Position numbers and translations under genes: made by a program. A DNA stretch of 62,293 bases, counting the filler, from Stramenopiles sp. TOSAG23-2 (lineage: Eukaryota), in the NCBI GenBank assembly GCA_900128395.1. It is 37 parts of 37 records of this genome, joined end to end, with 100 filler letters (N's around TTAATTAATTAA, not from the genome) between each part and the next. Parts side by side here need not be neighbours in the genome. Positions count along the whole stretch, not along the records: positions 14,357 to 15,359 come from LT654076.1; 36 more parts are not named here. The stretch is one strand, 5' to 3'. Each line of letters begins with the position of its first letter. Within the stretch, counting starts at the first letter, position 1. The notes under the pieces were generated by a model that saw nothing but the letters and a program-made list of their open reading frames with translations, was not told where the DNA came from and ran no database searches. Of this stretch, positions 2,211 to 55,788 are shown piece by piece.

Positions 2211-3050
2211 TCCTCTAGCATCTGATACAAATGCAATTTTAGTAACTCCACTGAAACCCAGTTCACCAGGTAAACGATTTGAATAATCTCTACGTCCTTT
2301 GCGCTCGCGTTTAGCTCGAGCCTTTTTTATTTTAATCTTTTTACGCCTTTTTTTATTTTTATGTTTACCGTCATAAATATCATCCCAAAATGCATCTTCA
2401 TCTTGGCCACCAGCCCAAAAATATTGACCTTCATCCTCATCATGTAACTCCAACAACTCAGCTGCATTTTCCCAACCCATATCAGCTGCTGACAGACCAG
2501 ACATTGCAGCAAGATCGTCCATCTCATTTGCTTTGACAGCAGATTGGACAGTGAAATTTGATGTTTTCTGAAAAATTTCCTCCAATTGCTCAGTCGTCAA
2601 TTCCTCGCCATTGTTATTATTGCTGCCACTGGTTTTACTAGCACCACCATCCATATCACCACTTTCACCTTCCTGCTGCTGTTGTTCACGAAATTGTTGT
2701 TTTACTTCTTCCAATTTTTGAAATTTTTTCATAATCATATCAACCGTCTCGCCCTCTTCAACATATCCAACATAATGTGACATAGATGGTTGCGAAAAAT
2801 TACTTTCGACTTCGCCTAAATCTTGTAAACGAGTCATTGCTTTTCGCGCTGCTGAACGTCTAGGGCGTCTTGATACTGGTGCAGCGGTTTTTGCATACGA
2901 ACCGCTGAAACTTGCATCCTCATTTTTTCGCTTTCCACGTCCTTTTTTCTTCTTTTTTGTATTTGTAGCTTTAGCATCATTGCCATTGGCTGTTTCAGCT
3001 GTTGTTTCAGTTGCTGGTTCTGTGGGAGTAGTAGTCGTCAATGATGTCAT
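2211..3050 (-). CDS. N-terminal part of a probable MT-A70-family (AMT1/MTA1-like) N6-adenine DNA methyltransferase, 3'-truncated
   Basis: Motifs SHYVGYVEEGETVDMIMKKFQKLEE and LEEIFQKTSNFTVQSA resemble the N-terminus I recall from MT-A70 proteins of early-diverging fungi and green algae. Basic NLS-like patches are present. The catalytic DPPW domain is not in the contig. Confidence 0.5.
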
Positions 3051-3620
3051 ACTATATTTCTTATTCCAGGTTTATTATTGAGAAACGAAATAGATAAATG
3101 ATAATATATTTATAATTATTTACTTTCTAGTTGTTTGTTGTATATATAGATATAGATATATCTTGTTGTATACATGTACATTTTTATTATCCTGTGTACA
3201 GTAGTGGTATTTATANNNNNNNNNNNNNNNNNNNNNNNNNNNNNNNNNNNNNNNNNNNNTTAATTAATTAANNNNNNNNNNNNNNNNNNNNNNNNNNNNN
3301 NNNNNNNNNNNNNNNAGTACATCTCAGGAGATGACTGTAATTGACTATTGTCACTATCTTCAATATCAGCAATTGAGTGAGACAGTTGAAGAACAACATC
3401 GTGGAGTATAATATATATATTGGCGTGGTTCGAGGTACTCGTATTTTTTTGAGGAGAGTATAGGAGTTCTATCACGCCCACGAGTAGAAAAATAAAAAAT
3501 TAACATACGCGCATTCTTCTTATTTTTTATTTCTACTCGTCGTGATAATTCCTACTCTCAAAATCAGTAACTGTGTGTAATTTTTAAAATTGGATTGTTA
3601 TCATACTAGTATCATAAGAT

Positions 3621-11756: not shown

Positions 11757-12048
11757 ACACCTGCTGTGTACCTGGGGCAAAACGGAGAAATATCGCCTGC
11801 TGTGTACCTGGGAAAATTTGGAGAAATATCGCCTGCTGTGTACCTGAGAAAATTCGGAAAATATTGCCTGCTGTGTACCTGGAAAATTTGGAAAATAAAG
11901 CCTGCTGTGTACCTGGGAAATTTGGAGAAATATCGCCTGCTGTGTACCTGGGAAAATTCGGAAAATATCGCCTGCTGTGTACCTGGAAAATTTGGAAAAT
12001 AAAGCCTGCTGTGTACCTGGGAAATTTGGAGAAATATCGCCTGCTGTG
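11757..12048. repeat. Minisatellite, 34-36 bp unit (CTGCTGTGTACCTGG..AAATTTGGA.AAATATCGC), ~9 copies, runs off the contig end
   Basis: CTGCTGTG units start at 11761, 11797, 11833, 11868, 11902, 11937, 11972, 12006 and 12041. Confidence 0.95.
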
Positions 12049-14356: not shown

Positions 14357-15359
14357 TGTCATTTCCGTTACAATTTCCCGTATTTGTCATTTTCGCGTTG
14401 AATTTTAAACTGCCATGCTCATAATAACACCCGTTTGGATCCGAACTTGCACCATCTTGATTGTCGTTGTACGCCGATGTATGCGGAAAATCTAATTGCG
14501 TAGCAGCAGTATTACATTCAGACATAGAAGTAATTGGAGTTGCACATTTTGAACTTGTTTGTCTTTCATAAGATACCAATAATCGCATTGTACTTGGACG
14601 TACACAACTTTCAAATTTTAATGCAGCAAAGGCACTACCAGTGGAAAATATTGTAACCACACCACTTGTCAATCCTGGATCAGTGCCTCCAAAACTACTA
14701 TTCCCCCATACTTTTACACTTCCATCTGATTTTAATGCAGCAAAGGCGTACGAATTGGAAAATATTGTAACTACACCACTTGTCAATCCTGGATCAGTGC
14801 CTCCGTAATTACTATCACCCCATACTTTTACACTTCCATCTGATTTTAATGCAGCAAAGGCGTACTTAGTGGAAAATATTGTAATCACACCACTTGTCAA
14901 TCCTGGATCAGCGCCTCCAGAAGTACTTTTCCCCCATGCTTTTACGCTTCCATCTGATTTTAATGCAGCAAAGGCTTTTCCAGTGGAAAATATTGCAACA
15001 ACACCACTTGTCAATCCTGGATCAGTGCCTCCCCAATCACTACGCCCCCATACTTTTACACTTCCATCTGATTTTAATGCAGCAAAGGCCCACCAATTGG
15101 AAAATATAGTAACTACACCACTTGTCAATCCTGGATCAGTGCCTCCATAAAGACTACTCCCCCATACTTTTACACTTCCATCTGATTTTAATGCAGCAAA
15201 GGCGTGCCCATTGGAAAATATAGTAACCACACCACTTGTCAATCCTGGATCAGTGCCTCCATAACTACTTTTCCCCCATGCTTTTACGCTTCCATCTGAT
15301 TTTAATGCAGCAAAGGCAGTACCAGTGTGAAATATTGCAACAACACCACTTGTCAATCT
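14357..15359 (-). CDS. RCC1/BLIP-II-like 38-aa tandem-repeat protein with a downstream Cys-rich module (fragment)
   Basis: About 6.5 copies of LTSGVVTIFSxxxAFAALKSDGSVKVWGxSxxGGTDPG at a 114-bp period, followed by CATPITSMSECNTAA...PNGCYY...NTGNC. Confidence 0.85.
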
Positions 15360-53558: not shown

Positions 53559-53933
53559 ATAATATATACATAGTATTAATTGATATATTTGGTATTTGAT
53601 TTGTTTAGATCCATGTCTGATTTCGGTTAATCATTTGTAGTGCTGTTGCATGCTATCAATAGAAAGATTTTGATGTCTTTTTCTGTCTCTCTGCATCGTC
53701 TCCAATAAATAGGCATGCAGGCTTGGTAGTATACAACATCGTTTCCAATCCAAAACCATCTCAAAAATCATCAAAAATCATCAAAAAATGTTAAATGAAA
53801 TAATAAATCATTACTCGTCAGCTGCGAATTACAGAATATATTCCATGATTGCAGAAGCAAAATAACATATTGGTTGTCTCTCAATTGATACATATATATA
53901 ATAATAAATTCGAGGCAAGACAACAAAACAAAC

Positions 53934-55788
53934 ATGAATATTATGAGAACAAATTTATTTTCAATTATAAAAAAACAATCTTATAAATTATTTACAAAAA
54001 AGAAGATTTTGATAGCATTATTTGTCGTTGTTGGTTTCTTTTTTAATTTAATAATACCAATAAATTCACAAACGGAATGGGATTGTTCTGCTACAACAAA
54101 TGAAGGTACGTTTAAAGTTAATAATGATTGTACCATATCAGGTAGTGATCACGTATCTGTATTGAATACGTTAGAAATTGATGGTATAAATACGGATATG
54201 AATAATTTAATTATTATAACTGCTGCAAGTAAACATCGTCATTTTTATTTGAATAATGCAAATGCTAAGTTAATATTACGTTATTTAAAATTAGTTGGTG
54301 GGGATGTTAGTAGTTATAGTAGTAGTCCTGATGAATATGGTGGATCAATATGTATCTATACAAACGGTGGTGAATTAAATTTATATTCATCTATTGTATA
54401 TAGAAATTGATGGTATAAATACGGATATGAATAATTTAATTATTATAACTGCTGCAAGTAAACATCGTCATTTTTATTTGAATAATGCAAATGCTAAGTT
54501 AATATTACGTTATTTAAAATTAGTTGGTGGGGATGTTAGTAGTTATAGTAGTAGTCCTGATGAATATGGTGGATCAATATGTATCTATACAAACGGTGGT
54601 GAATTAAATTTATATTCATCTATTGTATTTAATAATAAAGCTAGAACTGGTGGTGGAATACGTGCATATGGTGCTAGTATTAGTACGAATAGGAATGCGA
54701 TTATGAATATATATTATAGTATTATTCAGAATAATGAAGCTACTTATCATGGTGGTGGTATTTATATAGGTAATGCTGTTGCTACTATATACAATACTAC
54801 GATTGACAATAATCAAGCTAGTCAGTATGGTGGTGGTGGTGGTATGTCTATATGGGACAGTGATGTAACAATGAAGAATACAATCATATCAAATAATGAT
54901 GCTGGTTATGGAGGCGGCGGCCTCCATATAGCATGGGATAGCACAGTCATCCTCCGTCAATCATCATTTATCAATAATGATGCAACTAATGATGGCAGTG
55001 AAATATATACAGGAGGATCACCAACCATATCATTAATAAATACATATTTCAACAATCCAAATAATAATAATAATATTTATGATTATGGTACACCAACATG
55101 GAAAACATGTTCAAATAATTTATGTACGGAAAAAACATTTACTGGCACATGTCATGAAACAAACAATAATAATTATAATGTTGGAGTTGCATGTGCATGT
55201 TCAATAACTAATAACTTTGATTGCGTAGTATGTGGTATTGGGAAATTAAATCCTTTGAAAAGTCAAACATACCAAACAGCTTGCAAAAAATGTGGTGTTG
55301 GTAAATTTAATAAATTACAAGGCCAATCAAATTGCACAAGCTGTGGTGTTGGCAAATTCAATGATTTACAAGGCCAAAGAAAAAGCTTGCAAGACATGTG
55401 GCGTTGGTAAATATACGAATGTTGACCAATCAACTTGCACAAGCTGTGGCATTGGCAAATTCAATGATTTACAAGGCCAATCAAACGAAAAAGCTTGCAA
55501 GACATGTGGCGTTGGTAAATATACGAATGTTGACCAATCAACTTGCACAAGCTGTGGCATTGGCAAATTCAATGATTTACAAGGCCAATCAAACGAAAAA
55601 GCTTGCAAGACATGTGGCGTTGGTAAATATACGAATGTTGACCAATCAAATTGCACTAGCTGTGGCATTGGTAAATTTAATAGTTTACAAGGCCAATTAA
55701 ATGAAATAGCTTGCAAAAAATGTGACATTGGTCAATTTAATAAATTACAAGGCCAATCAAATTGCACAAGCTGTGGTGTTGGTAAATT
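53934..55788 (+). CDS. Surface/secreted protein: beta-helix (pectin-lyase/Pmp-like GG.I repeats) + Cys-rich GCC2/GCC3-type repeats; broken by a duplication and a frameshift, 3'-truncated
   Basis: Hydrophobic signal/anchor, then NNKARTGGGI, NNEATYHGGGI, NNDAGYGGGGL, then 108-bp units EKACKTCGVGKYTNVDQSTCTSCGIGKFNDLQGQSN. There is a 229-bp duplication (54172/54401) and a 5-nt loss near 55377. Confidence 0.8.

Follow-up and report, generated by a model that had tools for sequence, protein, structure and literature searches.

The 1003-bp contig described here probably codes for a portion of the head by which a type I membrane receptor of a MAST-4 flagellate binds its ligand, a head in which the face of a beta-propeller is diversified. 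The contig is one of the short contigs that, joined by N-linkers, form the window (the whole stretch of DNA analyzed, 62,293 nucleotides). The single 18S gene in the genome had no mismatches to the MAST-4 FISH probe and three to seven mismatches to six other MAST probes. On the basis of this match the host is considered a MAST-4 stramenopile, a marine flagellate that feeds on bacteria. In the sections of PMC4234645 consulted, five of the seven probe sequences, MAST-4 included, were confirmed. MAST-4 flagellates are described in the literature excerpts consulted as widespread uncultured bacterivores.

The repeat array was located by TRF, which reported 6.5 copies of 114 bp at 14615-15358 with 87% matches and no indels. 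The minus-strand frame from 15359 to 14358 was open throughout and consisted of 6.5 units of 114 bases followed by a Cys-rich part (Table 1). The array reaches the contig end at 15359, so it is incomplete there. Among the six whole units of the window, 24 of 38 codons were identical, in agreement with the invariant scaffold claimed in the sequence-only reading, and pairwise differences amounted to 8-20 of 114 bases (82-93% DNA identity), that is, the repeats were more than 80% identical, as in HNWD-like arrays. Units 1 and 4 were the closest pair (8 of 114 bases different). Two variants that these units share (VVAIF and VKAWGK) had been taken to be private to them; the sharing was seen, but unit 4 of a paralog has both variants too, so they are markers of a blade type. 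The patch triplets TGT, NGH, NWW, TGK, TKY, NSY, and TGS and the tetrads KSSY, SSLY, RSDW, KSTS, DSNY, and NSSF listed previously were all present exactly. The patches had also been described as rich in Trp, Tyr, Lys, Arg, and Asp, which needs a small correction: the commonest residue was Ser (17 of 75), followed by Tyr (15 of 75) and then Asp, Trp, and Asn.

Table 1. Features of the 1003-bp contig, in window coordinates
Feature	Position	Strand	Remarks
Whole contig G000:C5789, 1003 bp	14357..15359	.	between assembly linkers; gene truncated at both ends
Open frame P0001, 334 codons	14358..15359	-	internal piece of a modular surface-receptor gene
Last 6.5 blades of BLIP-II/RCC1-type propeller	14616..15356	-	Pfam RCC1_2, 90.3 bits, 6 stretches
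Unit starts	15356, 15242, 15128, 15014, 14900, 14786, 14672	-	
Patch 1, unit 1	15318..15326	-	turn between strands 1 and 2
Patch 1, other units	15204-15212, 15090-15098, 14976-14984, 14862-14870, 14748-14756, 14634-14642	-	
Patch 2, unit 1	15261..15272	-	loop after strand 3
Patch 2, other units	15147-15158, 15033-15044, 14919-14930, 14805-14816, 14691-14702	-	
Tract near-identical to paralog on C3082	14357..14863	-	5 differences in 507 bases
Sushi-like Cys backbone repeat, its start	14556..14606	-	receptor-family repeat
Cys-rich module, about 70 residues	14358..14555	-	no Pfam match; inserted in backbone repeat; recurs among family members

Each repeat contained five hypervariable codons (12, 13, 29, 31, and 32). 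Across the 15 whole units of the window and the paralog, the five codons defined from homologs (a set of 23 arrays, the window's own among them) carried 25 of the 35 amino-acid alleles, a concentration that cannot be ascribed to chance (binomial P = 5e-15). The presence of a homogenized array with two hypervariable patches was confirmed. Pfam side matches to Stannin, CBS, and RskA were rejected as repeat-inflated noise, and NCBIfam gave no match.

The fold of the repeat was examined with profiles and structure models. The array matched Pfam PF13540 (RCC1_2) against a cut-off of 22 bits, and a profile built from 47 arrays found BLIP-II first (E 4.6e-25). A single-sequence search of PDB sequences returned nothing useful. 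The AF2 model of the paralog domain, made from the 47-array alignment, had a mean pLDDT of 89 and a pTM of 0.85, with low confidence in the first 60 residues, and each of its blades consisted of three strands and one short helix; a single-sequence fold of a metagenome homolog (L093, below) was poor (pLDDT 51) and was left out. BLIP-II was the best PDB match of the model both in Foldseek, with a TM of 0.39 that is expected because BLIP-II has seven blades and the model ten, and in VIA-align (Z 16.0, rmsd 7.2, 236 aligned). A predicted Megaviridae protein matched the whole paralog model with a TM of 0.90. Profile, AF2 model, and fold searches agreed with the beta-propeller proposed earlier, and the repeat was shown, at the level of prediction, to be a three-stranded blade of the BLIP-II/RCC1 type.

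In an up-down meander, the apical turns and the interblade loops lie on one face. In the paralog model, patch 1 is the turn between strands 1 and 2 and patch 2 follows strand 3. The binding surface of BLIP-II is formed by apical beta-turns and interblade loops, according to the sections of 10.1101/2024.08.26.609822 consulted. Compared by structural element rather than by residue contacts, the predicted patches coincide with these binding turns and loops. Topology and homology thus place both patches on a putative recognition surface, as the sequence-only reading had supposed, and suggest that they form one binding face.

A genome protein search gave 15 matches, and the DNA search matched one other contig only, C3082, which carries the paralog. 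On C3082, a Sushi-like repeat and then a furin-like Cys module precede the propeller, which is built from nine whole blades between two half blades and so has ten blades in all. After the propeller come the Cys module also seen in the window, an intron of 117 bases predicted from its GT-AG borders, more Cys repeats, and a Thr-rich stretch. These are followed by a SEA-like domain (judged by eye, with no match in Pfam), a single membrane helix, and a cytoplasmic tail with a WW domain (PF00397, 36.6 bits) in which Pfam found no kinase match. The membrane anchor belongs to the paralog and is reached across the predicted intron, while the window fragment itself carries neither signal peptide nor helix. 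In X8, the one RNA run mapped, cover was low (7 of 30 bins), with none across the array and no display of intron splicing. The backbone repeat scored 0.94 to Sushi clusters (Atlas) with a low recognition value, and each stretch was below the Pfam cut-off, so the name Sushi-like is to be taken as a lead.

A related C-terminal region was found on four other contigs. C4960 is complete, with a signal-peptide-like segment, a helix, and a WW domain, and lacks the propeller; on C4896, the same backbone bears an SRCR domain together with two Kelch propellers. A scaffold-pattern search of public metagenomes yielded one contig, L093, which starts with 275 bases that match C4960 at 98% identity. After this shared start, L093, which has a signal peptide, continues into a furin-like module and a ten-blade propeller at the point where C4960 enters the Cys module. 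In an X8 contig the backbone repeat is joined directly to the Cys module and the cassette is missing. Thus the cassette of furin-like module and propeller, which lies amid Sushi-like Cys repeats, occurs in some members and is missing from others at equivalent places, and family members exchange it for Kelch, SRCR, or nothing. The receptor family has a signal peptide, a membrane helix, and a cytoplasmic WW domain, the first seen in L093 and the second in C3082, which fits the Cys-rich, extracellular module and the signal peptide or membrane helix expected from the first inspection. Beyond this genome, the chassis was found in only 2 of 7999 candidate proteins of similar length.

Related domains occurred elsewhere. 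On L013 (G000:C1293, 1186-1779), a furin-like module followed by a diverged RCC1-like blade lies behind a signal-like segment, and the pairing of furin and propeller may be old in the MAST-4 lineage. L085/L092 (G000:C617) and L086 (G000:C3790) encode a membrane protein made almost entirely of the Sushi-like repeat in several alternating types. P0019 has the 38-residue blade of the window array (79% identity) ahead of a multi-pass membrane region, that is, the cassette on another chassis. L008 (G000:C2733, 2-694) holds a second homogenized array of this blade family; its period is 47 residues and its patch 1 varies far less. On L017-L018 (G000:C689), the contig that also carries the 18S gene, a 4407-codon frame from 6240 encodes diverged blades of the same family and then low-complexity repeats.

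The independent copies were compared with the window. Compared with most units of the window and the paralog, the scaffold of L093 had 4-8 differing bases in 75, and L093 shared none of its ten patch-1 and none of its nine patch-2 sequences with the window or the paralog; five of the nine patch-2 loops were 3-5 residues longer. P0010, a marine fragment, carries this cassette on the same chassis; most of its patches are different. The four copies (window, paralog, L093, and P0010) differ mainly at two patches per blade; the blade number is ten in both complete copies (C3082 and L093). Variation in unit identity and order among the paralogs, which had been sought as a mark of diversification, was seen among the window, C3082, and L093. 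Upstream of the gene on L093, at about 2750-3180, lies a dispersed repeat of about 430 bases, 87-97% identical to many G000 contigs, which is possibly a mobile element.

We analyzed whether the window and C3082 derive from two loci. Four of the 22 listed runs were mapped, including two small DNA runs, X1 and X2 (17 and 21 million letters), which from their size are presumably single-cell genomes; variants of metagenome run X3 were left out because their loose ends suggest other organisms. Both X1 and X2 showed the window and the paralog letter at C3082 position 1458, and a second split at position 1688, one base beyond the end of the window contig. In X2, the depth of the shared flank was about 20-25, that of single-copy parts 7-11, and that of a known internal duplicate 19; X1 followed the same trend. 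Overall the shared flank was about twice as deep as single-copy parts, depth being uneven in amplified DNA. X1 also contains a window-specific patch, and X2 holds a further unit variant found in neither the window nor the paralog assembly. The simplest reading is that the genome has two paralogs, and heterozygosity could also account for these splits. The two versions had 5 differences in the last 507 bases and 57 in the preceding 496, which fits a recent conversion or duplication spanning the last blades and the next module. The four-gamete test was failed by 35 of 78 site pairs, a count to which misassembly would add; with the sharp edge of the tract, these failures suggest that the blades are mosaic, as conversion would give.

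It is very improbable that the two versions are alleles or assembly mosaics of one locus and that the shuffling is mostly a short-read artefact on amplified DNA. Illumina assemblies fail to rebuild such highly conserved repeat arrays, as stated in the sections of PMC12222747 consulted, and no contig of the listed runs bridges the whole array. The adjoining contig (13253-14256) has a carbohydrate-kinase-like frame (by eye) broken by duplications, namely a direct duplicate of 55 bases (13885/14010) and an inverted copy of 71 bases (13651/13940), both exact, which look like an amplification or assembly chimera and lend this explanation some weight. However, the window and the paralog each own patches absent from the other, the window-specific patch recurs in X1, both flank letters and the doubled depth appear in two runs, the listed pieces of X1 and X2 from other parts of the gene, which reach about 1 kb, show no breaks, and the independent L093 and P0010 carry other patches. 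A single locus could account for the unit order, which may be partly a product of assembly, but not for the patch repertoire. Exchange of repeats within and between paralogs was observed, with an order that is subject to assembly error.

Selection on the patches was investigated by counts and by likelihood. Among 17 units, pN was 0.50 and pS 0.39 at six patch codons, against 0.035 and 0.10 in the scaffold. Extra alleles were 25 amino-acid and 3 synonymous in the patches, against 10 and 7 in the scaffold (Fisher P = 0.027). Codon likelihoods peaked at dN/dS of 2, 5, 2, and 2 for the patches and 0.3-0.5 for the scaffold; 2 delta lnL against dN/dS = 1 was 1.8, 4.1, 5.1, and 1.7 in fits that concern five saturated codons on trees violated by recombination. 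For the five longer loops of L093, patch 2 was left out of the fits. The tree length of the patches was more than 20 times that of the scaffold. All patch peaks thus lie above 1 (2-5), but dN/dS exceeds 1 at the 5% level in just two of the four fits; diversifying selection on the patches is likely but not established.

The patches could instead be the neutral aftermath of blade amplification, with a constrained scaffold and exposed loops that drift, without diversifying selection or a special recognition role. That highly repetitive propellers arise continually, RCC1/BLIP-II propellers being 10% of them (the sections of PMC9218822 consulted), agrees with this explanation, as do the absence of a firm excess of patch dN/dS over 1 and the variability of the same positions throughout the family. 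However, drift of loops would not give the fourfold difference in synonymous divergence between patches and scaffold. Whole codons are replaced next to invariant silent sites, the patch tree is far longer than the scaffold tree, and the patches turn over completely between two complete copies that both keep ten blades. We regard the neutral explanation as unlikely.

A dedicated process beyond selection, in which a targeted mutator or a templated exchange of patches other than a diversity-generating retroelement (DGR) rewrites the patch codons, was also considered and is quite improbable. Such a process would produce changes of several bases that hit every codon position, a patch site that uses three different Gly codons, the raised silent divergence, and the changes of patch length in L093. 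However, long-lived patches that selection shields from homogenizing conversion look alike, as proposed for fungal HNWD genes in the excerpts consulted; there are just three extra synonymous patch alleles; and bacterial and viral arrays have the same patches, so no host-specific machine is needed. A DGR itself was rejected. Variation hit all three codon positions, including columns dominated by G or T and one variable column without A, and no template repeat was found, since the genome DNA search returned the paralog alone; as the sequence-only reading had concluded, the changes are not restricted to adenine. The genome has eight RVT_1 matches, none on C5789 or C3082, the contigs being short. 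The preferred reading remains a propeller whose scaffold would be kept uniform, and whose patches would be recombined, by conversion and unequal crossing-over between blades and paralogs, with selection retaining new patch residues.

The spread of the blade family was surveyed. Of the 121 proteins examined, 86 had at least four blades, and variability within the 23 most homogeneous ones was highest at the same positions. The 120 listed long homologs were mostly Calx-beta, cadherin, Ig, or collagen/pentapeptide proteins, those with names coming largely from cyanobacteria and other aquatic bacteria, and the Sushi-like chassis was in none of the 120. In IMG/VR contigs, identity across the whole domain rose to 64%, and some of these arrays also keep the linker and the 38-residue period. 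When viral contigs were scanned with the paralog protein alone there were no hits, because the search patterns included the variable patches; the alignment-based scan found 109 relatives among 203 stretches. In a tree of 45 arrays and 75 columns, 4 of 40 branches were well supported; the MAST-4 rows fell together with rows that are mainly cyanobacterial, within a set of viral and fibre sequences whose resolution was poor, and this tree cannot name the donor of the MAST-4 cassette. The two-patch pattern is family-wide, including cyanobacterial adhesin-like proteins and viral contigs, so it is less unusual than first implied.

The receptor was compared with known systems. The blade is that of BLIP-II (Streptomyces exfoliatus, PDB 1JTD and 3QHY), homologous by profile and fold, with the variable patches at BLIP-II's binding turns and loops, and the same type as in the highly repetitive RCC1/BLIP-II propellers of PMC9218822, as far as its consulted sections go. 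BLIP-II is a small secreted inhibitor of class A beta-lactamases with seven blades, whereas the MAST-4 propeller has ten and is a cassette in a eukaryotic membrane receptor. Assignment to BLIP-II proper was rejected on the ten blades of C3082 and L093, the TM of 0.39, and the embedding in a large receptor.

The fungal HNWD NLRs (Podospora het-d and het-e), as described in the excerpts of PMC12222747, share propeller repeats more than 80% identical, few hypervariable codons at a predicted interaction surface, and shuffling within and between paralogs. Their propellers are WD40, whereas that of MAST-4 is of BLIP-II type and extracellular, with a membrane helix and a WW tail. No cell-death effector was seen in the sequenced MAST-4 parts, and Pfam found no NACHT or NB-ARC match in the C3082 exons, C4960, or L093; on this ground, and because of the signal peptide and membrane helix, membership in the NLR/HNWD group was rejected. 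By analogy, the MAST-4 propeller may work like the fungal sensors of high internal conservation without being an NLR.

The ROCO-LRR and NB-ARC-TPR candidate receptors of Ectocarpus, also a stramenopile, share shuffling at the level of the repeat (PMC3341825, sections consulted). There, diversifying selection acts on the repeat binding domain, whereas in MAST-4 it is only suggested; the Ectocarpus proteins have another repeat fold and are GTPase or NB-ARC proteins rather than surface receptors. In Ectocarpus each repeat is an exon, whereas the MAST-4 array lies in one uninterrupted frame and exon, so exon shuffling of that type was rejected. The plant receptor kinases CRINKLY4/ACR4 (PDB 7A0J and 7A0K) share an extracellular BLIP-II-like propeller with a Cys-rich domain, but have seven diverged blades and a kinase, in contrast to ten homogenized blades, a long Cys stalk, and a WW tail; membership was rejected on the WW tail and the absence of a kinase match. 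Ten-blade arrays in viral contigs and large aquatic-bacterial proteins have the same blade and the same two variable patches on different carriers.

The propeller probably offers a surface that changes fast and binds prey or viruses. The presumed ligands of the receptor are molecules on the surface of prey bacteria or viruses, and binding would be linked to uptake or signalling by the WW tail. The novelty lies in the setting in MAST-4, an extracellular receptor whose cassettes are swapped, the diversification pattern itself being known and the blade family widespread. In the full-text papers searched, no description of hypervariable RCC1/BLIP-II arrays in stramenopiles or of this receptor family was found; gene-level lists in MAST-4 supplements could affect this novelty. 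The term "receptor" was absent from the main text of two papers on MAST-4 and bacterivory that were searched for it, and "RCC1" in the consulted parts of PMC5128809 and 10.64898/2026.02.10.705097 was rejected as a strain number. The receptor supplies a concrete candidate for prey or virus recognition by MAST-4-type cells. With it, repeat diversification of the fungal kind reaches an extracellular receptor in a free-living protist. The candidate domain is small, with ten blades and a good predicted fold, and exists in four natural variants that differ on one predicted face, so it lends itself to expression and to screens with marine bacteria and viruses; it can also be traced across ocean metagenomes.

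A further-reaching reading, to which we give a low probability, is that MAST-4 has a combinatorial receptor repertoire, with cassettes swapped on the Sushi-like stalk and contact codons actively rewritten. The rewriting would then proceed by targeted mutation or templated patch exchange, and individual cells would differ in prey or virus specificity. The module would be one that giant-virus fibres and bacterial adhesins have as well, and the same kind of binder would serve predator, prey, and virus in their competition.

Two other repeats were observed in the window. At 53889-55788, a gene fragment with a secreted-looking start encodes Gly-rich repeats and a 108-base Cys-rich repeat array, with exact duplicates of 229, 145, and 80 bases nearby that resemble assembly artefacts. 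At 11760-12048, a tandem repeat of 34-35 bases in 8.3 copies lies at a contig end.
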